Part shown: positions 2,958-24,829 of the stretch, piece by piece
Position numbering within the stretch: the stretch's first letter is position 1
Layout: every line of letters starts with the position of its first letter
NCBI RefSeq assembly: GCF_004324835.1
Contig: NW_021163311.1
Coordinates: 10,208-74,207, forward strand
DNA from: Dendronephthya gigantea
Lineage: Eukaryota
DNA length: 64,000 nucleotides
Direction: 5' to 3'
The notes under the pieces: model-generated
Told to the model about the DNA's origin: nothing
Seen by the model: the letters and a program-made list of their open reading frames with translations, nothing else
Database searches by the model: none
Made by a program: the position numbers and the translations under genes

Positions 2958-4598
2958 ATGGCTTCATATATACAAGGCTATGATGAAGAAAGGTTTGTGG
3001 ACAAAATCAATCAAAATTTTCATTGCCAGATTTGCTTTAATGTCTTGAAAGAGCCGGTTATGTGTTCGAGAAACCAGCATTCGTTTTGCCGTTGTTGTAT
3101 TACGAAACATCTGGAAAATTCTCAAACATGTCCAACGTGTGCTGATGAACTGACCGCAGAGACTTTATCCGAACCGAATAGAATGGTTAAAGATTTTTTG
3201 AATGAATCAAAAATTCGTTGCGTTTACATCGACAGAGGTTGTCAAGAAGTTGTAGAATTACAGCATCTTGACCGCCATGAAGATACATGTGGATATACAC
3301 CAGCCGTTTGTACAAACCAAGGCTGTGGTTTAATTGTCAACAAGCGTGATCTTATTCACCATGAAAGTGAAGTCTGTGAATTCCGAAAGTTGAAGTGTCA
3401 CTCGTGCCGAGAAATGACGAAAACTTTCGCAGATATGGAGGAAAGAATGGCGAATATCGAGAAGAATATGGTAACAAATAAAACAGTTGAAACTAAAATA
3501 ACCAATTTGGAGAAAAATATTGCCACTGTTGCGAATAATATGGAGAAAAACACCGCAGATATAAAAGTAGATATGGAAGGAAAACACGAAGCGGTTAACA
3601 ACAAAGTCGATGGATTGAAAACAGCTTTGGTCAGAGCTTTTGATGATATGAAGGACGTTCTTATCACGATGGAGGGCAAGAAAGTAGAAAACACAAGAAA
3701 AGTAATAAATAGACCAAGTGGTGATAAGGAAAATATAATTGTTGCTGGAGGTTTATTGACTAGCTCTGTAGAGATGTTTAACTGGCGTCAAAGAACATGG
3801 TCGCCATTACAATCAATGCCAAAGAAACGTTTGGTAGCAACTTCATTTATTTATAACAATCATATGACTATAGCTGGGGGTTGCTGTGGTGGGTCTGTCA
3901 TTGTTGATGATATGATTAGAATGAATATTGACCCAAACCTTGATCTCACAACACACTGGAGTGACTGTCCTGTTAAACTACCTGATAAGTTGGAATACCA
4001 CAGCAGTGTGCTGTATAATGATCAGTTGATAGTCTCTGGAGGTCGTAATAAAAATGTTTCATCTGACTTGATGAGAGCAGTCCAGCTTGTTCCTTTCTAT
4101 ACTGTGAAGACCTTATCAAGAATGCCAGAACCTAGACAAGGTCACAGCATGGAAATATTTGATGATAATTTGTTGATAGTTGGTGGAAGTACAACTGACA
4201 ATTACAAAGACAGCCTCAGCAGTGTCGTACTGTACGATATAAAGAAGAATCAGCTGAAACAGTTGTCACCACTGCCGTATGAAGTGAGGCACATGGCAAC
4301 TGTAAGATGGGGAGAAAACATTGTTGTTATTGGTGGCGTTGACAAACATGGCAAGGCATTAGATACAGTTATCATTTACAATGTCAAGACAGAACAAAGT
4401 CACATGCTGCCATCAATGAGATGTAAGAGGTGTGGATGTACTGCAGTTGTTATTGCAAACAACATTGTAGTCCTGGGAGGGAACGGTGAGCGAACAACAC
4501 TGAAGTCAGTTGAAGGTTTCAACTTTGAAAGGTATTCTTGGGAAGAACTTCCAGAAATGTCTGAAGCAAGATACTTGCACACTGCTGTTGTTGCGTGA
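2958..4598 (+). CDS. RING(C3HC4) - TRAF-type zinc finger - coiled coil - 6x Kelch protein, copy 1 (546 aa, intronless)
   Basis: Uninterrupted ATG-to-stop ORF. RING: CQICFNVL..C.RNQHSFCRCCITKHL..CPTC. TRAF-type zinc fingers: CVYIDRGC..HLDRHEDTC, CTNQGCG..HHESEVC. Coiled coil is K/E-rich with heptads. Six Kelch blades carry GG doublets: IIVAGG, MTIAGG, LIVSGG, LLIVGG, IVVIGG, IVVLGG. Confidence 0.9.
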   Translation: MASYIQGYDEERFVDKINQNFHCQICFNVLKEPVMCSRNQHSFCRCCITKHLENSQTCPTCADELTAETLSEPNRMVKDFLNESKIRCVYIDRGCQEVVELQHLDRHEDTCGYTPAVCTNQGCGLIVNKRDLIHHESEVCEFRKLKCHSCREMTKTFADMEERMANIEKNMVTNKTVETKITNLEKNIATVANNMEKNTADIKVDMEGKHEAVNNKVDGLKTALVRAFDDMKDVLITMEGKKVENTRKVINRPSGDKENIIVAGGLLTSSVEMFNWRQRTWSPLQSMPKKRLVATSFIYNNHMTIAGGCCGGSVIVDDMIRMNIDPNLDLTTHWSDCPVKLPDKLEYHSSVLYNDQLIVSGGRNKNVSSDLMRAVQLVPFYTVKTLSRMPEPRQGHSMEIFDDNLLIVGGSTTDNYKDSLSSVVLYDIKKNQLKQLSPLPYEVRHMATVRWGENIVVIGGVDKHGKALDTVIIYNVKTEQSHMLPSMRCKRCGCTAVVIANNIVVLGGNGERTTLKSVEGFNFERYSWEELPEMSEARYLHTAVVA

Positions 4599-5149
4599 AC
4601 AATATGTAAGGTATTAAGTGAAAACTCCTAACATATTATGAACAATTAAAATTAACTATAAGATTTTCACAAAGTTATAGAAATAGATTGTAGCATTCTA
4701 AGTTGATTGTCAGACATATACTGATTTGTATTTTTGTGATTGAATTTAAATTGAGTCAGTTTTTAGAATTATATATTAAAGAACAATAACAAATCTGTGA
4801 AATAAATATTTTCATTGAGGAAGGTTTAAAATGAAACATCAAATAAAAGATTTCAAACAATAGGTAGGTGCATGAGTGAAAAAAATTTGATTAAATATTG
4901 ACCATGTTGGATCAAAGTTATTAGTTTCTATTAACTGCGGTTTGGATTAAAAAATTCAACTTTCTAGAAGATAAATATTTCTGAGAGAAACGTAAAATGA
5001 AAGGGTAAACTTACGATGTTTCAGAGCATGTGATGAGGGAATATTTCTGATGTTAGATTTCAACATTGATAACGGTGCCTGTTCATCTCTCCATGATGTT
5101 CCCCACATTTGAAATAAAATTCCTTGAAAGAACAAGAAGTTTGTGATGA

Positions 5150-5292
5150 CCTACTTTAGTATTTTACCGTATAATGTCAGGTAATTTTACTCATCAGTGG
5201 AAGAGTACTGTCAGTTAATAAGTTAACAAACTAATATCTGTCAGTGTCTCTTGTTAACCCATTAGTTGCAATGCACCTAGATGTGACCCACT
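5150..5292 (-). repeat. Single diverged monomer of the 136-bp satellite (inverted orientation)
   Basis: Reverse complement of ..tgacagtactcttccactgatgagtaaaat..taggtcacatctgggtgcattgcaagctaatgggttaacaagagacact. Confidence 0.7.
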
Positions 5293-5739
5293 ATTGTATT
5301 TTAGGTCTAATAGGTGGATAACTTACAGCTGTTTTTCCCTGACAGTTTGTATTGGATTCACATTGTCCCTGCATTCGGCCTTTGATCAATACATCGTCCC
5401 AACCATTTGGACCCTTGCAAGAAACCATAAATATTGTGTAAACAAGATGTTTGTTGGCATTCAAAAGCTTTCACAGGAAGCTTGTAAACAAGTTGTAACA
5501 ATGTCAACATTTTATAAAGTCTAAATATAAATCTGCTGCAGATTTTTTACAAGTTGTTTATAAGGAAACAGTAAATACCTGTGATAGAACAAAGCTTCCT
5601 TCCTTGCAATTTGAACATCGACATCGCAATTTTCCTTGTGTTAGTTTCTTGCAAGTTTTACAATAAACAAAGAAGAAACTTTGCTTGCCTGAGATGAAAG
5701 AGTACAAAAAGTTTGGATTATTAAAGGAGCCCTGGTGTT

Positions 5740-6600: not shown

Positions 6601-6619
6601 CATATTGGAGGTATTTATT

Positions 6620-7445
6620 GAGGGTGTAAAATTAGGAGGGGGATTAAACAGGGTGGGGTCACATTATTATCTAGAGGTTTATGAAAGATCTCGTCACAAC
6701 CTGATTGTTCAGATTCACCGTCTTCATCCTCGTCATCCTGTGTCAGTTTACTTTCGTCAAACCATCATTCGCATTGTAAGTTGCATCAACTGAGATCTGA
6801 CCAGATTTCTGAACAGCATGAATGACGCTGTGGTTCATCTCTGCATTCTAAAAAAAACAGTTTCAGATCTCGAATGTCAGACTCATTGTCGACTGATGGT
6901 AATTGAAAGACTGAGAATTTGAGAATCCTCTGAAAAATCCTGGAAACTGTCCATGAGTGAGAATTCACATAAGTTTGGTCAGGTTTTAGTGAAAAAGATG
7001 GCTTTGAAAAATGTCTTAAAAATATTTTATAAATTCAGACACTGTGATATTCTGAGATGGACTGACTCAAGCAAGACAAGCTGTATCATAATCTATCTCA
7101 GATTTACTATAACGAAGATGGTCGCTTTAAACATCAAAATCCCGAACTAAAAAAACCTCATTTATGAAATCATTTCAACATTTCACAGTAAATCTTTCGT
7201 TATTTCTTTGAAAATTGTTATATAAATCACATTAAAAGCTTGATATTTTCCTAAAAATCACTCACCCCGAGTGTTAATTATCGGGTAATTCTCGACCGGC
7301 AAAAATGATTTTAATTCCAGCAGTTTTGACATTTTTCTTGCGAGCAATTTCCCGTTTTAGTTGAGCGATTGTCCAGGATGGTTGAAAACGAAGGTTAAAT
7401 GATTTGCCGTTGAAGTTTACGGTCACGTCGTGCGACATATTTCGC
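6620..7445 (-). pseudogene. UBL (Parkin-like) two-exon fragment, copy 2, with a premature stop
   Basis: ATG at 7445 on the minus strand gives an intact MSHDVTVNFNGKSFNLRFQPSWTIAQLKREIARKKNVKTAGIKIIFAGRELPDN*. A 1-nt deletion (cccgataattaac versus cccgatgaattaac in copy 1) creates the stop. The second exon-like segment at ~6620-6850 matches 1031-1250. Confidence 0.4.
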
Positions 7446-7564
7446 TAGAAAAGCTCGTGTATTTCCTTGCAATTGAGAGAAAATAATTCAAAATATTTTG
7501 CTTCAAAACGAAAGTTTGGAAAAGAAATGTTTGAAAATTGAAAGTTTAAAACGACGATTGCTTC

Positions 7565-8050
7565 CACTTACCAAAACAAACTTCCTCTTTTTTCCTTGAA
7601 CTTTTCACTCCCTGGCAGTTTTCTGATCTCTTGAAACACTAGAGTGTTTAGTGTTTTCTATTTTGGCAATCAATATAATTCCAGAGATTAGATTAGGATT
7701 AGGGTTAAATTTAGGATTAGGTTTAACCTCTATTTAACAATAAACCTAAGACCAAATCTTAACCCAAATCGTAACATAATCTCAAATAATAAATAAGTCT
7801 GAGGGATAGTTTTTTTAACTCATCAACAGCCAAAACAAACTTCCTCTTTGTCTTGAAATTTCACTCCCTGACAGTTTTCTGATATCACGATAAACTGGAT
7901 GTTTAGCGTCTTTTATGTTGGCAGTATTATTCCATTTAATCCTTCAGATTAGGTTAGGATTAGGGTTAAAATTAGGAATGAGTCTCACCCTATTAAACTT
8001 TAAACCTAAAACATAATCTTAACCCAATTCCTAACATAATCCCAAAGATT
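7565..8050. repeat. Second copy of the 2x245-bp telomere-like repeat element
   Basis: Same TTAGG/CCTAA-bearing duplicated element as 1975-2465. Confidence 0.7.
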
Positions 8051-8410
8051 GAATTCGTGTATTTAGGATTTAGTGAACATGGAGTTTTATATTAAAAACT
8101 ATCGCAGCATCGTGAGCACTTTTGAAAGTGTAAATTCGCATTTTAATAGAACAAGTTAAAGCTTTTAGAGTCGACTTTAATTACTGCAAAATAACATTTC
8201 TCTAAAATCTACTGAAAATAAAAGAAAAATGTTTAATTCTGCTCCAGCTCTCTCTCAGTCAGCTCCCGACATTTTCAAATTCATTTTTGGAAACACCGCA
8301 GCAAATTCCAGGAATTCCTGAGTCCTGACAGGAAAGGACGCGTCTTATGCAAACACTTTATAAGGAAGAGATATTTGTCTTCATAAACTGATAATTTTGG
8401 AGAAGATTTC

Positions 8411-8545
8411 GAGAAAATACAAACACAGACATCTTCAAGAACGAACACTGTATCTATATTCAGTCTATACAGCGAGGTTTATACTACAGAGCTACAAACA
8501 ACACCGAATTTGCTTTATTATTACGACACAAGAACGGCGTGAAAT
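8411..8545 (+). promoter_or_regulatory. Conserved leader or proximal promoter of gene 2
   Basis: Same conserved ~135 bp as 2820-2957. Confidence 0.5.
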
Positions 8546-10156
8546 ATGGCTTCATATATACAAGGCTACGATGAAGAAAGGTTTGTGAACCAAATCGATC
8601 GAAATTTTCATTGTCAGATTTGCTTCAACGTCTTGAAAGAGCCGGTTATGTGTTCCAGAAACCAACATTCTTTTTGCCGTTGTTGTATTACGAAACATCT
8701 GGAAAATTCTCAAACATGCCCAACGTGTGCTGATGAACTGACCGTAGAGACTTTGGCCGAAGCACCGCGAATGGTTAAAGATTTTTTGAATGAATCCAAA
8801 ATTCGTTGCGTTTACATCGACAGAGGTTGTCAAGAAGTTGTAGAATTACAGCATCTTGACCGCCATGAAGATACATGTGGATATACACCAGCCGTTTGTA
8901 CAAACCAAGGCTGTGGTTTAATTGTCAACAAGCGTGATCTTATTCACCATGAAAGTGAAGTCTGTGAATTCCGAAAGTTGAAGTGTCACTCGTGCGGAGA
9001 AATGACCAAAACTTTGGCAGATATGGAGGAAAGAATGGCGAATATCGACAAGAATAATGTAACGATTGAAACTAAAATCACAAATTTAGAGAGAAACGTT
9101 GAAAAAAACACGGCAGATATAAAAGCAGATATGGAAGGAAAACTCGAAGCGGTTAAAAACGAAGTCAAAGGATTGAAAACAGCTTTGGTCAGAGCTTTTG
9201 ATGAAATGAAGGACGTTCTCATCACGATGGACGGCAAGAAAGAAGAAAACACAAGAAAAGTAAGAAATAGACCAAGTGGTGATAAGGAAAATATAATTGT
9301 TGCTGGAGGTCATTGGACTAACTCTGTAGAGATGTTTAACTGGCGTCAAAGAACATGGTCGCCATTACAATCAATGCCAAACTATCGTCATGGAGCAACT
9401 TCATTTATTTATAACAATCATATGACTATAGCTGGGGGTTGGTGTGATTTGTCTGACATTGTTGATGATATGATTAGAATGAATATTGACCCAAACCCTG
9501 ATCTCTCAACACACTGGAGTGACTGTCCTGTTAAACTACCTCATAAGTTGAGATACCACAGCAGTGTGCTGTATAATGATCAGTTGATAGTCTTTGGAGG
9601 TGAAAAGAGAAATGTTTCATATGACCTGATCAGAGCAGTCCAGCTTGTTCCTCCCTATACTGTGAAGACCTTATCAAGAATGCCAGAACCAAGGCATGGT
9701 CACAGCATGGAATTATTTGATGATAATTTGTTGATAGTTGGTGGAACTACAACTGGTTATAACAAAGACAACCTGAGCAGTGTCACACTGTACAATATTA
9801 AGAAGAATGAGTTGAAACAGTTGTCACCACTGCCGTATGAAGTGAATCACATGGCAACTGTGAGATGGGGAGACAACATTGTTGTTATTGGTGGTGATGA
9901 CAAACATGGCAACAGATTAGATACAGTTATCATTTACAATGTCAAGACAGAACAAAGTCACATCCTGCCATCAATGAGATGTAAGAGGTTTGGATGTACT
10001 GCAGTTGTTATTGAAAACAACATTGTAGTCCTGGGAGGGTGTGGTCAATTTTTCCCCCTGAAGTCAGTTGAAGGTTTCAACTTTGAAAGGTATTCTTGGG
10101 AAGAACTTCCAGAAATGTCTGAAGCAAGATACTTGCACACTGCTGTTGTTGTGTGA
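8546..10156 (+). CDS. RING-TRAF-Kelch protein, copy 2 (536 aa)
   Basis: Intact ORF with the same domain order as copy 1. It differs mainly in the Kelch loop patches and has a short coiled-coil indel. Confidence 0.9.
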   Translation: MASYIQGYDEERFVNQIDRNFHCQICFNVLKEPVMCSRNQHSFCRCCITKHLENSQTCPTCADELTVETLAEAPRMVKDFLNESKIRCVYIDRGCQEVVELQHLDRHEDTCGYTPAVCTNQGCGLIVNKRDLIHHESEVCEFRKLKCHSCGEMTKTLADMEERMANIDKNNVTIETKITNLERNVEKNTADIKADMEGKLEAVKNEVKGLKTALVRAFDEMKDVLITMDGKKEENTRKVRNRPSGDKENIIVAGGHWTNSVEMFNWRQRTWSPLQSMPNYRHGATSFIYNNHMTIAGGWCDLSDIVDDMIRMNIDPNPDLSTHWSDCPVKLPHKLRYHSSVLYNDQLIVFGGEKRNVSYDLIRAVQLVPPYTVKTLSRMPEPRHGHSMELFDDNLLIVGGTTTGYNKDNLSSVTLYNIKKNELKQLSPLPYEVNHMATVRWGDNIVVIGGDDKHGNRLDTVIIYNVKTEQSHILPSMRCKRFGCTAVVIENNIVVLGGCGQFFPLKSVEGFNFERYSWEELPEMSEARYLHTAVVV

Positions 10157-10424
10157 ACAATATGTAAGGTATTAAGTGAAAACTCCTAACATATTATGAA
10201 CATTTGAAATGAACTATAAGATTTTCGCAAAGTTATAGAAATAGATTGTAGCATTCTAAGTTGATTGTCAGACATATACTGATTTGTATTTTTGTGATTG
10301 AATTTAAATTGTGTCAGTTCTTAGGATTATATATTAAAAAACAATAACAAATCTTTAAAATAGATATTTTCATTGAGGATGGTTTAAATTAAAACATGAA
10401 ATAAAAAAGTTGAAATAAGCTTTT

Positions 10425-10560
10425 GTGGAACCCCTCCACCTAGGTTTTTCACACCCCTCCTACCACCTAGGTTTGCACTCCCCCCCTCCCACCTAGGTTT
10501 TTTCAGCCACAACCCCACCCCTCCCCACCTGGGTTCTTCTCCCCTGGTGCCCCAGACCAA
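10425..10560. repeat. C-rich degenerate ~23-bp tandem repeat (ccctccacctaggttttt..) in the 3' flank
   Basis: It recurs ~270 bp after the stop codons of genes 2, 3, 4, 6 (partial) and 7, downstream of an AATAAA-containing 3' UTR. Confidence 0.6.
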
Positions 10561-10789
10561 GAATCCTAACTGAGCCTCTGCCTGAAGAAATAGTTCAGTT
10601 ACCTATTTTAAATATCAGCCTGTCTGTAAATGATGTCTGTGTCTGTCAGACTGCCACAGACTAAGTCATATTTTAAAATTTAACAATTAACAAGATTTGG
10701 AGAGATAGTTTTACTCTTTATTAAAACAAAACCCTGATTAACTAATATAAATTGGTTTGTCAACTAAAATAAAATTCTTGTTTCAAGTT

Positions 10790-11050
10790 TGCTCACAGAT
10801 TGTTTTGTAATTTCACGTTTTCCATCGCGTCCTTGAAGGCTTTTAGTACAAGATTTACATTATCTTTTGTACTGTTCAACCCCATCAGACCAACACGCCA
10901 TATCTGAAAAATTTCACCACAAAAAGTAGGGTTTTTCAAAGGGAAAAAATTTACGATTATGGAGTGAATATCTGCGAATATAGAGAAGAAAATTGTGAAT
11001 ATGAATACCTTTCCAGCAGAGCTTCCAAGAACACCTGAAATATCCATTTT
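10790..11050 (-). pseudogene. AGXT: Co-amplified copy of AGXT exons 9-10 and the intron between them (coding still intact)
   Basis: Minus strand encodes YKMDISG(V)LG(S)SAGK | IWRVGLMGLNSTKDNVNLVLKAFKDAMENVKLQNNL*, matching the genuine AGXT 3' exons at 33039-33292. Confidence 0.6.
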
Positions 11051-11129
11051 ATATCTGAAAATGAAATTGATTATTCAATTTTAACACTCTCTATGAATGA
11101 CCGCCCTGCAAGTCTTAAAAATGCCACTA

Positions 11130-12065
11130 TTGGCAAGATAGGGCAAGATAGAAGAAAACACAAGAAAAGTAAGAAATAGACCAAGTGGTGATAAGGAAAA
11201 TATAATTGTTGCTGGAGGTTTAGGAATTAACTCTGTAGAGATGTTTAACTGGCGTCAAAGAACATGGTCGCCATTACAATCAATGCCAAAGGATCGTGAA
11301 GGAGCGACTTCATTTATTTATAACAATCATATGACTATAGCTGGGGGTGACTGTGGTGGGTCTGACATTGTTGATGATATGATTAGAATGAATATTGACC
11401 CAAACCCTGATCTCTCAACACACTGGAGTGGCTGTCCTGTTAAACTACCTGATAAGTTGAGATTCCACAGCAGTGTGCTGTATAATGATCAGTTGATAGT
11501 CTCTGGAGGTGAAAAGAGAAAAGTTTCATCTGACTTGATCAGAGCAGTCCAGCTTGTTCCTCCCTATACTGCGAAGACCTTATCAAGAATGCCAGAACCA
11601 AGACAAGGTCACAGCATGGAAATATTTGATGATAATTTGTTGATAGTTGGTGGAAAAACAACTGACACTCTCAAAGACAACCTCAGCAGTGTCGTACTGT
11701 ATGATGTAAAGAAGAATGAGCTGAAACAGTTGTCACCACTCCCGTATGAAGTGAGTCACATGGCAACTGTGAGATGGGGAGACAACATTGTTGTTATTGG
11801 TGGAATTGACAAACAATGCAAGACATTAGATACAGTTGTCATTTACAATGTCAAGACAGAACAAAGTCACATGCTGCCATCAATGAGATTTAAGAGGTGG
11901 GGATGTACTGCAGTTGTTATTGAAAACAACATTGTAGTCCTGGGAGGGTATGGTGAGGTAGGAAAGCTGAAGTCAGTTGAAGGTTTCAACTTTGAAAGGT
12001 TATCTTGGGAAGAACTTCCAGAAATGTCTAAATCAAGATGGTGGCCCACTGCTGTTGCTGTGTGA
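11130..12065 (+). pseudogene. 5'-truncated RING-TRAF-Kelch copy 3 (Kelch half only)
   Basis: Homology begins mid-gene at ..gaagaaaacacaagaaaagtaagaaatagaccaagtggtgataaggaaaat.., which encodes ..EENTRKVRNRPSGDKENIIVAGG. The spacer hairpin sequence ..gccactattggcaag is fused directly to the gene at the shared ggcaag (microhomology deletion). The RING and TRAF parts are absent. Confidence 0.8.
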
Positions 12066-12334
12066 ACAATATGTAAGGTATTAAGTGAAAACGCCTAACA
12101 TATTATGAACAATTGAAATGAACTATCACATTTTTGACAAAGTTATAGAAATAGATTGCAGCATTCTAAGTTGATTGTGAGACATATACTGATTTGTATT
12201 TTTGTTTTTGAATTTAAATTGTGTCAGTTCTTAGGATTATATATTAAAGAACAATAACAAATCTTTGAAATAGATATTTTCATTGAGGAAGGTTTAAAAT
12301 GAAACACAAAATAAAACATTTGAAATAATATTTT

Positions 12335-12540
12335 CTGCACCCCCTCCACCTAGGTTTTTCACCACCACCCCCTTCCTCCTAGGTTTTTCACCCCCTCCCT
12401 CCCACAGTTTTTTTCACACCCCTCCTATCACCTAGGTTTGCACTCCCCCCTCCCACCTAGGTTTTCTCAGCCACAACCCCTCCCCTCCCCACCTGGGTTC
12501 TTCTGCCCCAGTTCCCCAGACCAAGAATCTTAACTGAGCC
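12335..12540. repeat. C-rich 3'-flank tandem repeat (longer version)
   Basis: ccctccacctaggtttttcac-type units. Confidence 0.6.
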
Positions 12541-12756
12541 TCTGCCTCAAGAAATAGCTCAGTTACCTATTTTAAATATCAGCCTGTCTGTAAATGATGT
12601 CTGTGTCTGTCAGACTGCCACAAACCAAGTCATATTTTAAAATTTAACAATTAACAAGATTTGGAGAGATAGTTTTACTCTTTATTAAAACAAAACCCTG
12701 ATTAACTAATATAAATTGGTTTGTCAAATAAAATAAAATTCTTGTTTCAAGTTTGC

Positions 12757-13012
12757 TCACAGATTGTTTTGTAATTTCACGTTTTCCATCGCGTCCTTGA
12801 AGGCTTTTAGTACAAGATTTACATTATCTTTTGTACTGTTCAACCCCATCAAACCAACACGTCATATCTGAAACATTTCACCACAAAAAGTAAGGCTTTT
12901 CACCGGGAAAAATTTACGATTATAGAGCGAATATCTGCGAATATGGAGAAGAAAATTGTGAATATGGATACCTTTCAAGCAGATCTTCCAAGACCACCTG
13001 AATTATCCATTT
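12757..13012 (-). pseudogene. AGXT: AGXT exon 9-10 derived fragment, copy B (nonsense mutation)
   Basis: The exon-10-like segment reads cag|ATA TGA CGT. TGG has become TGA within IWRVGL. Confidence 0.55.
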
Positions 13013-13069
13013 TATGTCTGAAAAAGAAATTCATTATTCAATTTTAAGACTCTCCCTCTTTATTGGACC

Positions 13070-13270
13070 TCTATGAATCACCCCCCTGCAAGTCTTTAAA
13101 ATGGTGCTGTTGGCAGGGGGGGACTTATTCCCAAGATTCATCACATAGCAAGTACCGTAAATGGAAAGATTCACCCCCCCTGCCCATATTGAAAAATTAA
13201 TCTACTGGCAGGGGGGTGATTGCCTCCATTTACAGTACTTGCTGAGTGACGGAACCACTTATGGAAAAAA
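13070..13270. repeat. Nested palindromic foldback module (~45-bp inverted arms plus a short GC hairpin)
   Basis: cccccctgcaagtc..ggcagggggg forms the short hairpin. catcacatagcaagtaccgtaaatgga..tcaccccccctgcc pairs with ggcaggggggtgattgcctccatttacagtacttgctgagtga. Confidence 0.7.
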
Positions 13271-13389
13271 CTATGGAGTTGTTCTTCTGATAGGTATTCT
13301 GCGCCTACACTTTCTTTTATTTTTATTGTATTTTTATCTTTACTTGAAAGCACGACAAGAAATTACCATTTAGACCTAACCCGGGGGGT

Positions 13390-13900
13390 GACGGGAGTCA
13401 ATGACCAAATTCATTACTCATTCTTTTTCGAGAAATGCATTATAGTTTAAAATTTAGTGTAGCCGAATTCATATTAGAGGCGGGAAACTCGTCTTACAAG
13501 GTCAAGGAAAACAGGAAACTCGTCTTACAGGGGAAACTCCTCTTGGAAACTCATCTTAAACGGGAAACTCGTCTGATGTGAATCAGGCCACAGACGGGTT
13601 TCTCGTCAGAATTTTCCCGCCTGACTTTCCCGTCTAAACAAACGGTTAATTTGAACGGGAATCCCTTCTGGACGAGAAACTTGTATTAAATTCGCATTTA
13701 GACGGATAAATCAGACGAGTTTCTGAAATATCAACACGGTCAAGGATCGAACAAGGGTAAAGCCCGCCGCACAAGAGAGCTATCAGCTGCACTAACGACC
13801 TCGAGGCGAATTCCTCACGAAAAACTATCCGCACACGAGAGTAACTTGCTGAGCTAACAGCCTCGCTTTACCTCAGCTACCAGCTCTCGTGTGAGGCGCG
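13390..13900. repeat. Cluster of short direct and inverted GAAACTCGTCT-type repeats plus a ~52-bp tandem (aactatccgcacacga..) with hairpins; resembles transposon subterminal repeats
   Basis: The reads are ggaaactcgtcttaca, ggaaactcgtcttacag, gaaactcctcttgg, gaaactcatcttaaacgg, gaaactcgtctgatg, and inverted cagacgggtttctcgtcag and cagacgagtttctg. Hairpins are ctgagctaac..gttaactcag. The copy number of the 52-bp unit varies between spacers (1-3). Confidence 0.6.
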
Positions 13901-14177
13901 CTTAACTTAGAAAATAAACAAAACTATTATCGTAATAATCACGATACCCTTTTTAGCATTACCCGACCCATCACACGTGTAAATTTTATATCCATTTCAA
14001 GTCATATTAAGACGAGTTTTTACAATCAACTTTCCTGTCTAAGATGAATTTTTCGTGCCTAATATGAATTTGGTTATTAATGTGAGAGAGATGATACCTT
14101 CGGCTTCTCCGCTTCCTTGAATATACAATCCATTGTTATATGGTTTGTTGTTGTTTGAATAAGAACGTGATTTTCGT

Positions 14178-14605
14178 CAGATCTTCGCAGCAAATGGTGT
14201 CAAGACAGAATTCCCTGGTTTGCAAATTATGTCGACGCCATTGTGTGTACGAGAACCTCTGTATAATGATAAATTCACGTTAATTTAATTGTTTTGTAAG
14301 ATTATAAGAATATTATCGATTCGCTGTCTTGCTACAAGCTTACATCTGGTCTTACCTTGGTGTTCCGAAATCACCACAACCCTGACTGTCACATTCACGG
14401 ATTAAATTTCTACCATTTGAGCTGCAAAGCTGACCAAGTTTAAAACATTCAACCGTATTATCTAGAAAAATAAATACAGAAAAATACGATGAAGAATAAC
14501 GAAGTGATACTTGAGAATTCTACGAACAAAGATATATATCACAATATGTATTCCAGTACCTTCAAAGACTAGGAATATAACAACGATCTTAACAACTCCA
14601 AAAAT
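14178..14605 (-). pseudogene. Small secreted Cys-rich 3-exon gene E, inactivated copy (start codon lost)
   Basis: Exons 2 (14356-14461) and 3 (~14178-14259) are conserved. The exon-1 ATG is mutated (aaagatttttggag versus aaagatgtttggag in the other copies). Confidence 0.45.
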
Positions 14606-14904
14606 CTTTGATCTGCTAAAATTTAATCTTCTAGCTTGAAATGGCTTTTCATCGATATAATGACCGCACTTATACAGGATGTTTAAAAAAACACAACACT
14701 TAATATTTATGAATATTTTGATACGCTATACGATCTTTTGTGATCAAAACGAAAGTGAATTTCATAAACACTTTGAAGTGGCGTTTTTCTTATTCACCAC
14801 AGCTGTAGATCAATCCACAAGATATCCTGAACCATTTGTGTGTTGATGAAAACTCATTTAGATTGGAATATTATTGCACCGCGAAAATATTCAACTCGAC
14901 TTAG

Positions 14905-15040
14905 ACAAAGTAAAATACTAAAGTAGGTCACATCTGGGTGCATTGCAAGCTAATGGGTTAACAAGAGACACTGACAGATAGTTTTGTTAACTTATTAACT
15001 GACAGTACTCTTCCACTGATGAGTAAAATCATCTGACACG
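14905..15040. repeat. 136-bp satellite monomer abutting the gene-4 promoter
   Basis: ..gacagatagttttgttaacttattaactgacagtactcttccactgatgagtaaaatcatctgacacgattaggaaaa joined directly to tacaaactatttcttgg. Confidence 0.7.
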
Positions 15041-15304
15041 ATTAGGAAAATACAAACTATTTCTTGGTATAAAGTATCTTTTTCTTCGAACTTATTTCCA
15101 TATAATGAAATAAGAAATTCCTTCCAACATAAACACAACCAATTGCAAGTCAGCATTTGAATAGAAGATGCTGAGCTTTTGTCAGGAGACAATAATAATA
15201 ATATAATTTTTTTATATCACGAATTCCTGTCCACAAAACACTCCTTAAACACTTACGGAAGAGATATTTCTCTGCTGTTCTAAACAGATAATTTTGCCGT
15301 AACG

Positions 15305-15443
15305 ATTTGAGAAAATACAAACACAGACTTCTTCAAGAACGAACACTGTATGTATATTCAGTCTATACAGCGAGGTTTATACTACAGAGCGACAAACAAC
15401 ACAGAACTTGCTTTATTATTACGACATAAGAACGACGTGAAAT
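15305..15443 (+). promoter_or_regulatory. Conserved leader of gene 4, type-B upstream
   Basis: Same proximal ~135 bp. The upstream region is type B (cacgaattcctgtccacaaaacactccttaaacacttacggaagagatatttctctgctg..) and the type-A segment is missing. Confidence 0.5.
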
Positions 15444-17074
15444 ATGGCTTCATATATACAAGGCTACGATGAAGAACGCTTCGAGACCAAAGTCAGTAAA
15501 AATTTCCTTTGTCAGATTTGCTTCAACGTCTTGAAAGAGCCTGTCCTGTGTCCGACAAACCAACATTGTTTTTGCCGTTGTTGTATTACGAAACATCTGG
15601 AAAATTCTCAAACATGTCCAACGTGTGCTGATGAACTGACCGTAGAGACTTTGGGCGAACCCCAAAGAATTGTAAAAGATCTTATAAACGAGTTAAAAAT
15701 TCGTTGCGTTTACATCGACAGAGGTTGTCAAGAGTTGTGGAATTACAGCATCTTGACCGCCATGAAGATACATGTGGATACACACCAGCCGTTTGTACAA
15801 ACCAAGGCTGTGGTTTAATTGTCAACAAGCGTGATCTTATTCACCATGAAAGTGAAGTCTGTGAATTCCGAAAGTTGAAGTGTCACTCGTGCGGAGAAAT
15901 GACGAAAACTTTGGCAGATATGGAGGAAAAAATGGCGAAGAATAATGTAAATATTGAAACTAAAATAACAAATTTAGAGAAAAACGTTGCTACTTTTGCG
16001 AATGATATGGAGAAAAACACCGCAGATATAAAAGCAGATATAAAAGCAGATATGGAAGGAAAACTCGAAGCGGTTAACAACGAAGTCAAAGGATTGAAAA
16101 CAGCTTTGGTCAAAGCTTTTGATGAAATGAAGGACGTTCTTATCACGATGGAGGGCAAGAAAGAAGAAAACACAAGAAAAGTAAGAAATAGACCAAGTGG
16201 TGATAAGGAAAATATAATTGTTGCTGGAGATGTAGCAACTAACTCTGTAGAGATATTTAACTGGCGCCAAAGAACATGGTCGCCATTACAATCAATGCCA
16301 GAGGATCGTTATGGAGCAACTTCATTTACTTATAACAATCATATGACTATAGCTGGGGGTGGCTGTGGTTGGCCTGGCATTGTTGATGATATAATTAGAA
16401 TGAATATTGACCCAAACCCTGATCTCTCAACACACTGGAGTGACTGTCCTGTTAAACTACCTGATAAGTTGAGATACCACAGCAGTGTGCTGTATAATGA
16501 TGAGTTGATACTCTCTGGAGGTGATAATGGAAATGTTTCATCTGACTTGATCAGATCAGTCCAGCTTGTTCCTCCCTATACTGTGAAGACCTTATCAAGA
16601 ATGCCAGAACCGAGACAAGGTCACAGCATGGAAATATTTGATGATAATTTGTTGACAGTTGGTGGAAGTAAAACTGACAGTTACACAGACAACCTCAGCA
16701 GTGTCGTACTGTACGATATAAAGAAGAATGAGCTAAAACAGTTGTCACCACTGCCGTATGAAGTGAGTGCTATGGCAACTGTGAGATGGGGAGACAACCT
16801 TGTTGTTATTGGTGGCGTTGACAAACATGGCAAGACATTAGATACAGTTATCATTTACAATGTCAAGACAAAACAAAGTCACATGCTGCCATCAATGAGA
16901 TGTAAGAGGAGAGGATGCACTGCAGTTGTTATTGAAAACAACATTGTAGTCCTGGGAGGATCTGGTGCAGGAGAACTGAAGTCAGTTGAAGGTTTCAACT
17001 TTGAAAGGTATTCTTGGGAAAAACTTCCAGAAATGTCTAAAGCAAGATGGCGGCACACTGCTGTTGTTGTGTGA
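15444..17074 (+). pseudogene. RING-TRAF-Kelch copy 4, disrupted by a 1-nt deletion (true pseudogene or homopolymer assembly error)
   Basis: caagagttgtggaattacagc here against caagaggttgtggaattacagc in gene 5. The ORF splits into 15444-15818 and 15704-17074. The 5' flank and N-terminal half are otherwise identical to gene 5. Confidence 0.6.
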
Positions 17075-17339
17075 ACAATATGTAAGGTATTAAGTGAAAA
17101 CTCCTAACATATTATGAACAATTGAAATGAACTATAAGATTTTCACAAAGTTATAGAAATAGATTGCAGCATTCTAAGTTGATTGTCAGACATATACTGA
17201 TTTGTATTTTTGTGTTTGAATTTAAATTGTGTCAGTTCTTAGGATTATATATTAAAGAACAATAACAAATCTTTGAAATAGATTTTTTTATTGAGGAAGG
17301 TTTATAATGAAACACAAAATAAAAAATTTGAAATAAGCT

Positions 17340-17470
17340 TTTCTGCACCCCCTCCACCTAGGTTTTTTCACTCCCTCCCTCCCACAGGTTTTTTCACCCC
17401 CCCCAACTAGGTTTTTCAACCACCCAACCTCACCCCTTTCTACCTGGGTTCTTCTTCCCCGGGCCCCCAG
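17340..17470. repeat. C-rich 3'-flank tandem repeat
   Basis: ccctccacctaggttttttcac units. Confidence 0.6.
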
Positions 17471-17707
17471 ACCAAGAATCCTAACTGAGCCTCTGGCTCA
17501 AGAAATAGCTCAGTTACCTATTTTAAATATCAGCCTGTCTGTAAATGATGTTTGTGTCTGTCAGACTGCCACAGACCAAGTCATATTTTAAAATTTAACA
17601 ATTAACAAGATTTGAAGAGATAGTTTTACTCTTTATTAAAACAAAACCATGATTAACTAATATAAATTGGTTTGTCAAATAAAATAAAATTCTTGTTTCA
17701 AGTTTGC

Positions 17708-17968
17708 TCACAGATTGTTTTGTAATTTCACGTTTTCCATGGCATCCTTGAAGGCTTTTAGTACAAGATTTACATTATCTTTTGTACTGTTCAACCCCAT
17801 CAGACCAACACGCCATATCTGAAAAATTTCACCACAAAAAGTAGGTTTTTCAAGGGAAAAAATTTACGATTATGGAGTGAATATCTGCGAATATGAGAAG
17901 AAAATTGTGAATATGATACCTTTCCAGCAGATTTCCAAGACCACCTGAAATATCCATTTTATATCTGA
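17708..17968 (-). pseudogene. AGXT: AGXT exon 9-10 derived fragment, copy C (frameshift in the exon-9-like part)
   Basis: cagcagatttccaagacc against cagcagatcttccaagacc in the real exon 9. The exon-10-like part is intact. Confidence 0.55.
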
Positions 17969-18004
17969 AAAAGAAATTGATTATTCAATTTTAACACTCT
18001 CTAT

Positions 18005-18170
18005 GAATGACCCCCTGCAAGTAAAAATGCCACTATTGGCAGGGGGTACTTCCCAAGATTTATCACTTAGAAAGTACGTAAATGGAGATACCCCCCTGCC
18101 CATATTAAAAATAACTGTTCGAGGGGGGTGATTGCCTCCATTTACCGTACTTCCTGAGTGACGTGAACCA
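18005..18170. repeat. Palindromic foldback module (copy)
   Basis: cacttagaaagtacgtaaatggag .. ctccatttaccgtacttcctgagtg. Confidence 0.7.
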
Positions 18171-18329
18171 CTTATGCAAAAAACTATGGAGTTGTTCTTC
18201 TGATAGGTATTCTGTGCCTACACTTTCTTTTATTTTTATTGTATTTTTATCTTTACTTGAAAGCACGACATGAAATTACCATTTAGACCTAACCCGGGGG
18301 GTGACGGGAGTCAATGACCAAATTCATTA

Positions 18330-18870
18330 CTCATTTTGTTTCGAGAAATGCATTATAGTTTAAAATTTAGTTTAGCCGAATTCATATTAGAGGCGGGAAA
18401 CTCGTCTTACAAGGTCAAGGAAAACAGGAAACTCGTCTTACAGGGGAAACTCCTCTTGGAAACTCATCTTAGACGGGAAACTCGTCTGATGTGAATCAGG
18501 CCACAGACGGGTTTCTCGTCAGAATTTTCCCGCCTAACTTTCCCGTCTAAACAAACGGTTAATTCCTTCTGGACGAGAATCTCGTCTTAAATTCACATTT
18601 AGACGGATAAATCAGACGAGTTTCTGAAATATCAACACGGTCAAGGACGGAACAAGGGTAAAGCCCGCCGCACAAGAGAGCTATCAGCTGAGCTAACGAT
18701 CTCGCGAGGCAGTTAACTCAGCCTGAAAACTATCCGCACACGATAGAAACTTGCCTCTCGAGGCGAATTCCTCACGAAAAACTATCCGCACACGAGAGTA
18801 ACTTGCTGAGCTAACAGCCTCGCGAGGTCTTTAACTCAGCTAGCAGCTCTCGTGTGAGGCGGGTTTATTT
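18330..18870. repeat. GAAACTCGTCT short-repeat cluster plus 52-bp tandem (3 copies here)
   Basis: Same module as 13390-13900, with two extra aactatccgcacacga units. Confidence 0.6.
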
Positions 18871-19138
18871 GAGAAAATAAACAAATTTTTATCGTAACAA
18901 TCACGATACCCTTTTTAACATTACCCGACCCATCACACGTGTAAATTTTATATCCATTCCAACTCATATTAAGACGGGTTTTTCACAATCAACTTTCTGT
19001 CTAAGATGAATTTGCCGTGCCTAATATGAATTTGGTTATTAATGCGAGAGAGATGATACCCTCATCTTCTTCGCTTCCTTGAATATACAATCCATTGTTA
19101 TATGGTTTGTTGTTTTTTGAATAAGGACGTGATTTTCG

Positions 19139-19568
19139 TCAGATCTTCGAAGCAAATGGTGTCATGACAGAACTCCCTGGTTTGCAAATTATGTCGACAC
19201 CATTGTCTGTACGAGAGCCTCTGTATAATGATAAATTCACGTTAATTTACTTGTTTTTGTAAGATTATAAGAATATTATCGATTCGTTGTGTTGCTACAA
19301 GGTTACATCTGGTCTTACCTTGGTGTTCCGAAATCACCACAACCCTGACTGTCACATTCACGGATTAAATTTCTACCATTTGAGCTGCAAAGCTGACCAA
19401 GTTTAAAACATTCAACCGCATTATCTAGAAAAATAAATCCAGAAAAATACGATGAAGAATAACGAAGTGATACTTGAGAATTCTATGAACAAAGATATAT
19501 ATCACAATATGTATTCCAGTACCTGCAAAGACTAGGAATATAACAACGATCTTAACAACTCCAAACAT
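19139..19568 (-). CDS. Gene E: small secreted Cys-rich protein (~77 aa), 3 exons
   Basis: Exons 19523-19568, 19319-19424 and 19139-19221. MFGVVKIVVIFLVFA(G) signal ends at |GTACTG. A 98-nt intron ends ttctag. Then DNAVECFKLGQLCSSNGRNLIRECDSQGCGDFGTPR|GTAAGA. A 97-nt intron ends tacag, followed by RGSRTDNGVDIICKPGSSVMTPFASKI*. Confidence 0.5.
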
Positions 19569-19867
19569 CTTTGATCTGCTAAAATTTAATCTTCTAGCTT
19601 GAAATGGCTTTTCATCGATATAATGACCGCACTTATACAGGATGTTTAAAAAAACACAACACTTAATATTTATGAATATTTTGATACGCTATACGATCTT
19701 TTGTGATCAAAACGAAAGTGAATTTCACGAACACTTTGAAGTTGCGTTTTTCTTATTCACCACAGCTGTAGATCAATCCACAAGATATCCTGAAACATTT
19801 GTGTGTTGATGAAAACTCATTTAGATTGGAATATTATTGCACCGCGAAAATATTCAACTTGACTTAG

Positions 19868-20003
19868 ACAAAGTAAAATACTAAAGTAGGTCACATCTGG
19901 GTGCATTGCAAGCTAATGGGTTAACAAGAGACACTGACAGATAGTTTTGTTAACTTATTAACTGACAGTACTCTTCCACTGATGAGTAAAATCATCTGAC
20001 ACG
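19868..20003. repeat. 136-bp satellite monomer upstream of gene 5
   Basis: As at 14905-15040. Confidence 0.7.
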
Positions 20004-20266
20004 ATTAGGAAAATACAAACTATTTCTTGGTATAAAGTATCTTTTTCTTCGAACTTATTTCCATATAATGAAATAAGAAATTCCTTCCAACATAAACACA
20101 ACCAATTGCAAGTCAGCATTTGAATAGAAGATGCTGAGCTTTTGTCAGGAGACAATAATAATAATATAATTTTTTTATATCACGAATTCCTGTCCACAAA
20201 ACACTCCTTAAACACTTACGGAAGAGATATTTCTCTGCTGTTCTAAACAGATAATTTTGCCGTAAC

Positions 20267-20405
20267 GATTTGAGAAAATACAAACACAGACTTCTTCAAG
20301 AACGAACACTGTATGTATTTCAGTCTATACAGCGAGGTTTATACTACAGAGCGACAAACAACACAGAACTTGCTTTATTATTCCGACATAAGAACGACGT
20401 GAAAT
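20267..20405 (+). promoter_or_regulatory. Conserved leader of gene 5 (type B)
   Basis: Identical to the gene-4 upstream. Confidence 0.5.
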
Positions 20406-22040
20406 ATGGCTTCATATATACAAGGCTACGATGAAGAACGCTTCGAGACCAAAGTCAGTAAAAATTTCCTTTGTCAGATTTGCTTCAACGTCTTGAAAGA
20501 GCCTGTCCTGTGTCCGACAAACCAACATTGTTTTTGCCGTTGTTGTATTACGAAACATCTGGAAAATTCTCAAACATGTCCAACGTGTGCTGATGAACTG
20601 ACCGTAGAGACTTTGGGCGAACCCCAAAGAATTGTAAAAGATCTTATAAACGAGTTAAAAATTCGTTGCGTTTACATCGACAGAGGTTGTCAAGAGGTTG
20701 TGGAATTACAGCATCTTGACCGCCATGAAGATACATGTGGATACACACCAGCCGTTTGTACAAACCAAGGCTGTGGTTTAATTGTCAACAAGCGTGATCT
20801 TATTCACCATGAAAGTGAAGTCTGTGAATTCCGAAAGTTGAAGTGTCACTCGTGCGGAGAAATGACGAAAACTTTGGCAGATATGGAGGAAAAAATGGCG
20901 AAGAATAATGTAAATATTGAAACTAAAATAACAAATTTAGAGAAAAACGTTGCTACTTTTGCGAATGATATGGAGAAAAACACCGCAGATATAAAAGCAG
21001 ATATAAAAGCAGATATGGAAGGAAAACTCGAAGCGGTTAACAACGAAGTCAAAGGATTGAAAACAGCTTTGGTCAAAGCTTTTGATGAAATGAAGGACGT
21101 TCTTATCACGATGGAGGGCAAGAAAGAAGAAAACACAAGAAAAGTAAGAAATAGACCAAGTGGTGATAAGGAAAATATAATTGTTGCTGGAGATGTAGCA
21201 ACTAACTCTGTAGAGATATTTAACTGGCGCCAAAGAACATGGTCGCCATTACAATCAATGCCAGAGGATCGTTATGGAGCAACTTCATTTACTTATAACA
21301 ATCATATGACTATAGCTGGGGGTTGGTGTGGTGTGTCTGTCATTGCTGATGATATGATTAGAATGAATATTGACCCAAACCCTGATCTCTCAACACACTG
21401 GAGTGACTGTCCTGTTAAACTACCTGATAAATTAATATTCCACAGCAGTGTGCTGTATAATGATCAGTTGATAGTCTCTGGAGGTGATAATGGAAATGGT
21501 TTATCTGACTTGATCAGATCAGTCCAGCTTGTTCCTCCCTATACTGTGAAGACCTTAACAAGAATGCCAGAACCAAGACAAGGTCACAGCATGGAAATAT
21601 TTGATGATAATTTGGTGATAGTTGGTGGAAGTACAATTAGCAGTTACAAAGGCAACCTCAGCAGTGTCGTACTGTACGATATAAAGAAGAATGAGCTGAG
21701 ACAGTTGTCACCACTGCCGTATGAGGTGAGTCTCATGGCAACTGTGAGATGGGGAGACAACATTGTTGTTATTGGTGGCTTTGACAAATATGGCAAATTA
21801 CTAGATACAGTTATCATTTACAATGTCAAGACAGGACAAAGTCACATGCTGCCATCAATGAGATGTAAGAGGAGGGGATGTACTGCAGTTGTTATTGAAA
21901 ACAACATTGTAGTCCTGGGAGGGGAGAGTGAGCAAGCAATGCTAACATCAGTTGAAGGTTTCAACTTTGAAAGGTATTCTTGGGAAGAACTTCCAGAAAT
22001 GTCTGAAGCAAGATTGTGGCACACTGCTGTTGTTGTGTGA
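20406..22040 (+). CDS. RING-TRAF-Kelch protein, copy 5 (544 aa)
   Basis: Intact ORF. Codons 1 to ~300 are identical to copy 4. The Kelch half has diverged. Confidence 0.9.
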   Translation: MASYIQGYDEERFETKVSKNFLCQICFNVLKEPVLCPTNQHCFCRCCITKHLENSQTCPTCADELTVETLGEPQRIVKDLINELKIRCVYIDRGCQEVVELQHLDRHEDTCGYTPAVCTNQGCGLIVNKRDLIHHESEVCEFRKLKCHSCGEMTKTLADMEEKMAKNNVNIETKITNLEKNVATFANDMEKNTADIKADIKADMEGKLEAVNNEVKGLKTALVKAFDEMKDVLITMEGKKEENTRKVRNRPSGDKENIIVAGDVATNSVEIFNWRQRTWSPLQSMPEDRYGATSFTYNNHMTIAGGWCGVSVIADDMIRMNIDPNPDLSTHWSDCPVKLPDKLIFHSSVLYNDQLIVSGGDNGNGLSDLIRSVQLVPPYTVKTLTRMPEPRQGHSMEIFDDNLVIVGGSTISSYKGNLSSVVLYDIKKNELRQLSPLPYEVSLMATVRWGDNIVVIGGFDKYGKLLDTVIIYNVKTGQSHMLPSMRCKRRGCTAVVIENNIVVLGGESEQAMLTSVEGFNFERYSWEELPEMSEARLWHTAVVV

Positions 22041-22234: not shown

Positions 22235-22430
22235 ACAAAACAGACCAACACGCCATATCTGAAAAATTTCACGACAAAAAGTACAGTTTTTCACAGGGAA
22301 AAAATTTACGATTATGGAGCGAATATCTGCGAATATGGAGAAGAAAATTGTGAATATGGATACCTTTCCAGCAGATCTTCCAAGACCACCTGAAATATCC
22401 ATTTTATATCTGAAAAAAAATTTGATTATT
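22235..22430 (-). pseudogene. AGXT: AGXT-derived fragment, copy D (exon 9 retained, exon 10 mostly deleted)
   Basis: ..aacaataacaaa|acagaccaacacgccatatctgaaaaatttcac.. The 3' UTR of gene 5 is joined inside the exon-10-like segment. The exon-9-like part reads MDISGGLGRSAGK. Confidence 0.5.
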
Positions 22431-22464: not shown

Positions 22465-22665
22465 ATGAATCACCCCCCTGCAAGTATTAAAAATGAGGCT
22501 GTTGGCAGGGGGGTAGTCCTTCCCACGATTCATCACTCAGCAAGTACCGTTAATTGAAGCAATCACCCCCCCTGCTTATATTGGAAATGGGGCTTTTGGC
22601 AGGGAGGTAATTACTTCCATTTACAGTACTTGCTGAGTGACGGAACCACTTATGCAAAAAACTAT
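22465..22665. repeat. Palindromic foldback module (copy)
   Basis: The inverted arms ..agcaagtaccgttaattgaag.. and ..ttccatttacagtacttgctgagtgacgg flank ggcaggg. Confidence 0.7.
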
Positions 22666-22779
22666 GGAGTTGTTCTTCTGATAGGTATTCTGTGCCTACA
22701 CTTTCTTTTATTTTTATTGTATTTTTATCTTTACTTGAAAGCACGACATGAAATTACCATTTAGATCTAACCGGGGGGT

Positions 22780-23320
22780 GAAGGAAGTACAATCATCAAA
22801 TTGATTACTAATGGTAGTTTATATACAATTAAATTGACTTTTGCAAAATACAATGACATTTTCGTGCAAATAAAACCAAATACGGTAGAAATAACTACAA
22901 AACCATGGTCCATTTTACCAATACAACAACTATTATTACAAATAGTCTTTTGGAATTACGATTAAACCATTCTTATAAAGTTGTAAATGCAAATGCTGTG
23001 TTATTCCTGAGTAAGGAATTTCCTACGATTTTCCTAACACTGAACCTTCATCAGCGAAGCCTGAAGACTTCGAAGGCGTGAAATAAAATATCTTTGCACT
23101 AAAACCTATAAAAAATGAATGAAGTTAATTACTCTAGTGCAATACACGGGTCTACGAGGTTGTTCTCAAGTCATGCAACGATGAACCTTCCATATTTCAT
23201 TTTAATATTTATGGCTTTATTGTTGAAGATAATGAAAGCGAAAGAGAGAAATTGTTTACAAGTGAAATAGTCAGATTGTCTTTTAAATTGCCGTGGAAAA
23301 CTGATTTTGTTTCGAGAAAT
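22780..23320. other. Copy-specific ~530-bp insertion or replacement unique to spacer 5-6
   Basis: Other spacers read ccatttagacctaacccggggggtgacgggagtcaatgaccaaattcattactcatt..gtttcgagaaatgc. Here ~530 unrelated bp intervene. No clear TIR is visible. Confidence 0.4.
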
Positions 23321-23830
23321 ACATTATAGTTTAAAATTTACTTTAGCCGAATTCATATTAGAGGCGGGAAACTCGTCTTACAAGGTCAAGAAAAACAGGA
23401 AACTCGTTTCACAGGGGAAACTCCTCTTGGAAACTCATCTTAGACGGGAAACTCGTCTGATGTGAATCAGGCTACAGACGGGTTTCTCGTCAGAATTTTT
23501 CCGCCTAACTTTCCCGTCTAAACAAACGGTTAATTTGAACGGGAATCCCTTCTGGACGAGAAACTCGTCTTAAATTCGCATTTAGACGAATAAATCAGAC
23601 GAGTTTCTGAAATATCAACACGGTCAAAGACGGAACAAGGGTAAAGCCCGCCGCACAAGAGAGCTATCAGCTGAAAACTATCCGCACACGATAGAAACTT
23701 GCCTCTCGAGGCGAATTCCTCACGAAAAACTATCCGCACACGAGAGTAACTTGCTGAGCTAACAGCCTCGCGAGGTCTTTACCTCAGCTACCAGCTCTCG
23801 TGTGAGGCGCGCTTAACTGAGAAAATAAAC
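23320..23830. repeat. GAAACTCGTCT short-repeat cluster plus 52-bp tandem (2 copies)
   Basis: Same module as 13390-13900. Confidence 0.6.
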
Positions 23831-24087
23831 AAAATTATTATCGTAATAATCACAACACCCTTTTTAGCATTACCCGACCCATCACACGTGTAAATTTCAT
23901 ATCCATTCCAAGTCATATTAAGACGGGTTTTTACAATCAACTTTCCTGTCTAAGATGAATTTCCCGTGCCTAATATGAATTTGGTTATTAATGTGAGAGA
24001 GATGATACCTTCGGCTTCTCCGCTTCCTTGAATATACAATCCATTGTTATATGGTTTGTTGTTGTTTGAATAAGAACGTGATTTTCG

Positions 24088-24515: not shown

Positions 24516-24829
24516 CTTTGATTTGCTAAAATTTAATCTTCTAGCTTGAAATGGCTTTTCATCGATATAATGACCGCACTTATACAGGATGTTTAAAAAA
24601 ACGCAACACTTAATATTTATGAATATTTTGATACGCTATACGATCTTTTGTGATCAAAACGAAAGTTAATTTCATAAACACTTTGAAGTTGCGTTTTTCT
24701 TATTCACCACAGCTGTAGATCAATCCACAAGATATCCTAAACCATTTGTGTGTTGATGAAAACTGATTTAGATTGGAATATTATTCCACCGCGAAAATAT
24801 TCAACTTGACTTAGACAGAGTAAAATACT

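Follow-up and report, generated by a model that had tools for sequence, protein, structure and literature searches.

The third of seven tandem RING-Kelch gene copies in the window (the whole 64,000-nucleotide stretch of DNA that was analysed) has no 5' half and is joined in the middle of the gene to the spacer that follows gene 2. Copy 3 was probably once a complete unit from which an end-joining deletion at a GGCA microhomology removed 3–4 kb, leaving a 6-nt templated insert at the join. In its present state the copy is, as read from its sequence, most likely a young pseudogene.

The seven gene copies were found on the + strand within positions 1–34000 of the window and are intronless and arranged head-to-tail (Table 1). 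Full copies share a RING / TRAF-Sina zinc-finger / coiled-coil / Kelch-propeller architecture. In Pfam matches the C3HC4 RING spans residues 23–61, the Sina_ZnF/zf-TRAF zinc fingers span residues 88–156 and the Kelch repeats span residues ~256–536, up to the C-terminus, while a coiled-coil-like stretch covers residues ~153–225. The start-to-start spacing is 1909 bp between copies 2 and 3 as compared to 4963–5558 bp between all others. A protein search returned 1676 homologues at an E of 1e-10 or better, the best of which were just 67–76% identical, and the only named ones were from the octocoral Paramuricea clavata, where they are called 'RING finger 151-like' or 'NRDP1'. The homologue count, taken together with the origin of these named relatives, points to a large, lineage-specific expansion of the family in a genome resembling those of octocorals. 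The contig of the closest public relative carries same-strand tandem copies as well, with three full genes at 75% protein identity, and provided neither spacer homology nor a truncated copy to compare. A literature search for a RING-Kelch family in octocorals gave nothing relevant.

The two halves of the genes differ in how they evolve. Across the Kelch halves of all seven copies (2958–32442, e.g. 9233–10156) dN/dS was ~1.17, with pairwise values of 0.73–2.3, versus 0.35 for the half that holds the RING, zinc fingers and coiled coil. Variable residues are limited to short patches located directly after the GG motif of each blade and the framework is otherwise invariant, a pattern that looks like diversifying selection on one propeller face. 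Over 300 nt copies g4 and g5 show no difference (100% identity), and gene conversion is evidently a process active in this array; the identical stretch corresponds to the first ~300 nt of gene 4, which would indicate recent gene conversion or duplication. Gene 4 also carries a 1-bp deletion at ~15734 (AGAGTT in place of AGAGGTT) and is out of frame past codon 97, making it a second defective copy or else reflecting a consensus error.

Table 1. Positions in the window of the gene copies, spacers and junction elements.
Feature	Position	Strand	Description
g1	2958–4598	+	intact
Gene 2 (g2)	8546–10156	+	intact, 536 aa; directly upstream of the scar; ORF and Pfam matches
Spacer A of unit 2	10157–11135	+	3' UTR-like block and spacer; homologous to other spacers up to the left breakpoint
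Truncated inverted repeat, unit 2	11095–11135	+	left arm (11095–11113) and loop kept; right arm consists of TATTGGCA only (11128–11135)
GGCA	11132–11135	+	4-nt microhomology between ancestral spacer (TTGGCAgggg) and gene (gagGGCAagaaag)
GGCAAGATAG, two copies	11132–11151	+	perfect 10-bp tandem duplication spanning the junction
AGATAG	11136–11141	+	6 nt from neither parent; exact copy of 11146–11151
Private A>T	11149	+	changes Lys to Ile (GKI in place of GKK); repeated in the first 10-mer at 11139
Copy 3	11142–12065	+	5'-truncated; 307 open codons corresponding to residues 230–536, the whole Kelch propeller
Spacer A of unit 3	12066–13119	+	inverted repeat intact at 13083–13119; uninterrupted counterpart of the left breakpoint
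Spacer B and proximal upstream block (15247–15443), unit 3/4	13120–15443	+	type of sequence that is absent between 11135 and 11140
g4	15444–17074	+	frameshifted
g5	20406–22040	+	intact
g6	25746–27380	+	intact
g7	30844–32442	+	intact

Alignment of unit 4 (15444–20405), employed as a full reference, was used to locate the junction. The alignment is split, with 15444–18041 matching 8546–11135 and 16152–20405 matching 11140–15443, and the jump from spacer to mid-gene, at codon 230, must therefore lie within 11135–11140. Sequence is spacer-derived up to A11135 and gene-derived from A11140, and the parents on either side of the junction are unrelated and share no extended homology. A sequence-only reading of this DNA had proposed that copy 3 is truncated within 11090–11250 by an illegitimate join of a spacer hairpin to mid-gene, and each element of this was borne out: the reference alignment breaks inside that interval, alignment against the spacer and gene paralogues recovers the two parents, the join is non-homologous, and the left breakpoint lies inside the 3' arm of a spacer inverted repeat. 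The spacer string that it quoted, ccctgcaagtcttaaaaatgccactattggcaag, is literally present at 11105–11137. Its further statement that the RING, TRAF and coiled-coil half is missing agrees with the Pfam results, in which copy 3 is without the RING, the zinc fingers (Sina/TRAF) and the coiled coil and keeps all Kelch repeats.

At nucleotide level the junction is more elaborate. The string that runs across it is ATTGGCAAGATAGGGCAAGATAGAAG, and positions 11128–11159 read TATT GGCAAGATAG GGCAAGATAG AAGAAAAC, in which the two adjacent 10-mers form a 20-mer found once in the window where 0 would be expected by chance. Paralogous genes read GGAGGGCAAGAAAGAAGAAAAC at the right breakpoint. GGCA is present at the orthologous positions of four out of four spacers that retain this segment and of five out of six paralogous genes (AGCA in g7), and at these positions units 4 and 5 likewise give a microhomology of 4. 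In 200,000 random spacer-to-gene joins drawn from this locus, a chance microhomology of at least 4 nt had P = 0.020 and one of at least 6 nt had P = 0.002; the observed 4-nt overlap thus exceeds chance only modestly. The bases AGATAG that follow it may be either a templated insert or the product of later replication slippage, and their last three form an in-frame TAG (11139–11141) that closes the frame of copy 3 upstream.

These details depart from the earlier description of the join. It was said to have occurred at a shared hexamer, ggcaag, yet two GGCAAG are present 10 bp apart and such a fusion would leave one. The use of a short overlap holds, but its size is 4 nt (GGCA) since all four paralogous spacers keeping this segment read TTGGCAGGGG. 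The gene string given for copy 3, ggcaagaaagaagaaaac, belongs to genes 2, 4, 5 and 6 and is absent from copy 3, which has ggcaagaTagaagaaaac and accordingly encodes GKIEENTRK, preceded by the in-frame TAG, in place of the reported GKKEENTRK. Nor is the footprint a clean one, given the 6 extra bases, the 10-bp tandem duplication and the private A>T that occurs in both 10-mers. The interpretation is right in kind and inaccurate in detail.

The inverted repeat at the left breakpoint is imperfect and is intact in the paralogous spacers. When intact it has 19-nt arms that are 79% complementary, a loop of 20–23 nt and a GC stem of 7–10 bp, e.g. CCCCCTGC/GCAGGGGG. Folding it as single-stranded DNA gave a dG of -7.8 to -10.9 kcal/mol with z from +0.5 to -2.3. 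It is a real but weak structure, and on account of the weak fold a role for the hairpin as the cause of the break, or as a fragile site, is conjecture.

Upstream of the junction, 10100–11135 aligns to 17018–18041 (93%) and to 12009–13115 (87%). The conserved AATAAA of gene 2 is located within this region, 244 nt past the stop and with ~730 nt separating it from the junction. A tblastn match that carried copy 3 upstream as far as 10944 was discarded as low-complexity over-extension, as the stretch is spacer A and homologous to the other spacers. Two spacer types precede the genes of the array. Genes g1 and g2 share ~1.95 kb of upstream sequence (1004–2954 vs 6604–8545, 93% identity) while g4–g7 share another, spacer B (13120–15443, 18042–20405, 22508–25745 and 28011–30843). 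Only the proximal 200–300 bp before the ATG are common to every full gene, and this block is presumably the promoter/5' UTR. Spacer 5 (22239–22241) is without ~530 bp (corresponding to 17270–17800) that spacers 2–4 contain, and spacer 6 (27661–27913) lacks a similar stretch or has it replaced, meaning that the spacers underwent several independent indels.

Several repeats were observed in and around the spacers. A C-rich 23–26-bp minisatellite, CACCCCCTCCACCTAGGTTTTTCACC, is found in spacer A (10431–10502, 12338–12480, 17346–17416 and 32714–32780), and its copy number differs among units, which explains most of the variation in length seen when the spacers are aligned. Past the downstream end of the gene cluster, at 36694–39509, lies a ~2.8-kb array of a 138-bp satellite, which recurs from one to four times inside each spacer B (24807–25362; singles at ~14763–15176 and ~19726–20139) and is inverted in spacer 1 (5147–5303, minus strand). 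Satellites with units of 77 bp, 80 bp and 114 bp occupy 33361–36439, the last gene unit ending at 33329. Spacer A further holds, on the minus strand at 10793–11047 and in other units (e.g. 17711–17863), a remnant resembling the C-terminal exon of an alanine-glyoxylate/serine-pyruvate aminotransferase. A stretch of 32 residues from it aligns to residues 352–384 of AGXT structures in a weak match (E = 0.017), in which AGXT-family chains make up the top 18 of the 21 listed matches, and a GT donor-like boundary lies further upstream. The remnant suggests that the tail of a neighbouring gene was part of the original duplicated unit. Scans of 8000–21000 with Rfam and for tRNAs gave zero matches.

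Measured against the neighbouring units, the piece missing at the junction amounts to 3042–3959 bp and takes in the remainder of the inverted repeat, spacer B, the ~200-bp common upstream block and codons 1–229. The upstream block that precedes every full gene is absent before 11140. Loss of this piece from a complete unit, as the sequence-only reading had also proposed, is favoured by the paralogue tests described below, but the direction of the event is something we infer, as a tandem duplication of 1.9 kb gives the same layout. Here a segment reaching from codon 230 of g2 to the spacer hairpin would have been copied head-to-tail, and copy 3 would never have had a 5' half; the route could have been a microhomology-primed backward template switch following fork collapse at the hairpin, of the MMBIR/FoSTeS type. 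This is unlikely, even though the junction it yields is identical to that of a deletion, the repeat period of 1909 bp is the length of the proposed duplicated segment, and g2 and g3 group weakly against g4–g7. This grouping is seen in quartets without g1, in which g2+g3 was slightly favoured, with 43 sites versus 26 and 23 for the alternatives, and in a (g1,g2,g3) split with 36% bootstrap. Under a duplication, copy 3 and spacer 3 should have the 3' half of g2 and spacer 2 as their nearest relatives. The partner of g2 is instead g1, at 78% bootstrap, versus 16% for g2+g3, and quartets that include g1 gave 6–12 sites for (g2,g1|g3,x) versus 2–4 for (g2,g3|g1,x). The distance between s2 and s3 (0.079) is in fact the largest among spacer A pairs (others 0.064–0.076). 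Directly beside the breakpoint s2 has the s4 haplotype, sharing with s4 a 17-bp deletion and ~5 substitutions in its last 80 nt, while s3 has the s5/s6 haplotype. To rescue the duplication one has to postulate an additional gene-conversion event and the derivation of unit 1 from unit 2 at a later time. No orphan 5' half-gene was found anywhere in the window. The phylogenetic arguments are soft because the paralogue tree is nearly star-like and because of gene conversion; the deletion would nonetheless be the more parsimonious reading and is favoured here. A duplication of two units, from mid-g1 to s2, was excluded as the sequence type of spacer 1 differs from that of spacer 3.

What remains of copy 3 shows no decay. 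Its first ATG is at 11241 and opens an ORF of 274 aa, and the Kelch half as a whole has 307 codons with no stops and no indels relative to the paralogues, whereas the same half carries one in-frame indel each in g6, g7 and the frameshifted g4. Compared with the consensus it has 34 amino-acid differences, and the 34 hypervariable columns, which constitute 11% of columns, contain 18 of them. The rate of framework change is 0.059 in copy 3 and mostly 0.051–0.065 in the other copies (0.015 in g7). If all 44 nucleotide differences from the consensus were neutral, the probability of no premature stop would be 0.018. The intact frame and the usual pattern of differences imply that most of the divergence predates the truncation, or that the frame has been refreshed or maintained. 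As only Kelch matches were obtained, RING, Sina_ZnF and zf-TRAF are absent and the TAG shuts the frame upstream, copy 3 falls outside the functional RING-Kelch E3 ligases (RNF151/NRDP1-like plus Kelch).

The undecayed frame could also mean that the truncation is real and that the Kelch-only frame lives on as a gene that is expressed and maintained, encoding from M11241 a RING-less propeller that acts as decoy or competitor of the full-length paralogues. The uninterrupted codons, the low probability of such a frame under neutrality, differences that sit in the same hypervariable patches with a framework rate like that of intact copies, and a conserved 3' block that is kept together with its AATAAA all favour this. 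Recent truncation, or gene conversion from the neighbours, predicts the same undecayed pattern, however, and copy 3 is without the upstream block common to all full genes. Read-through expression from gene 2 is moreover unexpected given the position of the gene 2 poly(A) signal relative to the junction, and the usual selection test is powerless in distinguishing a pseudogene as every copy has a dN/dS of ~1 in its Kelch half (omega 0.73–2.3 between copies). A maintained gene is for these reasons improbable. The more specific proposition, that a cryptic start in the spacer gives rise to transcripts of copy 3 and that selection keeps it as a decoy or dominant-negative partner of the full-length paralogues, would be a long shot; if true, an end-joining accident would be the origin of a new regulatory gene in what is a candidate octocoral recognition/immune family. 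An artefact of assembly or consensus, that is a chimeric join or collapse within the repetitive array, was considered as well, given that tandem 5-kb units at 90–95% identity assemble poorly and that searches of the public collections turned up neither the junction nor these proteins a second time. Exact-sequence look-ups in public assemblies with the 274-aa ORF of copy 3 and with gene 2 gave no match, and neither did a metagenome contig scan with a 26-nt junction string. Collapses join homologous positions, though, whereas this junction joins unrelated sequences over a 4-nt overlap. Both flanks are at least 6% diverged from every other copy, which would make the placement of reads unambiguous, and the junction looks evolved, carrying a private substitution duplicated in the 10-bp repeat. 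An artefact is accordingly very improbable.

Taking the deletion as the preferred reading, the junction can be accounted for if a break formed, or a replication fork collapsed, in or close to the GC-stemmed inverted repeat of spacer 2 and microhomology-mediated (alternative) end joining then repaired the damage. After resection the spacer end, ...TATTGGCA-3', would use its GGCA to anneal with the same four bases at codon 230 of gene 3, upon which a polymerase would add ~6 nt (AGATAG) and dissociate. The end would then re-anneal 10 nt further back, where the GGAG that precedes GGCAAG in the gene offers a 2-nt AG match, and renewed extension would leave GGCAAGATAG twice. This one-step path requires that the A>T was already present in gene 3. 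A two-step history, in which a GGCA-mediated join was followed later by a 10-bp slippage duplication, is equally possible. The outcome would in either case be a loss of ~3.0–4.0 kb and a promoter-less, Kelch-only frame closed upstream by TAG.

The scar is an ordinary instance of a well-known process, pseudogenisation via error-prone end joining, and alone it matters little, being one more 5'-truncated paralogue inside a tandem array. It does bear on annotation, as copy 3 is better called a truncated pseudogene or gene fragment than a Kelch gene. The unique 20-mer at the junction can be used to check assemblies of the array by reads or PCR, and the scar serves as a dated marker of array history that is young relative to the 6–9% divergence among copies. 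The array itself, part of a hugely expanded octocoral RING-Kelch family with hypervariable Kelch loops, merits more attention than the scar.

By analogy with known repair products, the scar would best be read as of polymerase-theta type. Scars of polymerase-theta/microhomology-mediated end joining have reportedly been catalogued in a mammalian-cell study. The present junction resembles such scars in that the join is non-homologous, the homology is limited to a few bases and the extra bases copy adjacent sequence exactly, and it differs from them in that ~3–4 kb were lost and that the insert may be a separate, later slippage product. Short junctional homology together with inserts templated beside the break is the signature of polymerase-theta-mediated end joining among indels of the germline and of natural isolates in C. 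elegans, where typical theta-mediated deletions span a few to tens of bp (PMC4490562). As the loss of ~3 kb exceeds that of typical theta scars, an origin from two breaks, or from fork collapse with template switching, would fit better.

Other processes produce similar outcomes. Unequal crossing-over (NAHR) likewise alters how many units an array has and how long they are, but it joins homologous positions to form hybrid full-length units and was excluded, the join here being one of unrelated spacer to coding sequence with a spacing of 1909 bp and not ~5 kb. A processed, 5'-truncated pseudogene is also a gene copy without 5' part and promoter; a retrocopy was excluded because the 3.4 kb downstream of copy 3 are collinear with array spacers A/B and there is no poly(A) tail and no target-site duplication. 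Fast-evolving tandem clusters, such as those of vertebrate TRIM and plant and animal NLR genes, contain truncated or partial paralogues. The present array may be likened to these in its lineage-specific expansion, its hypervariable recognition surfaces and the presence of a frameshifted member (g4) and a truncated one (copy 3) among intact ones, and differs from them in its RING / TRAF-Sina zinc-finger / coiled-coil / Kelch architecture.
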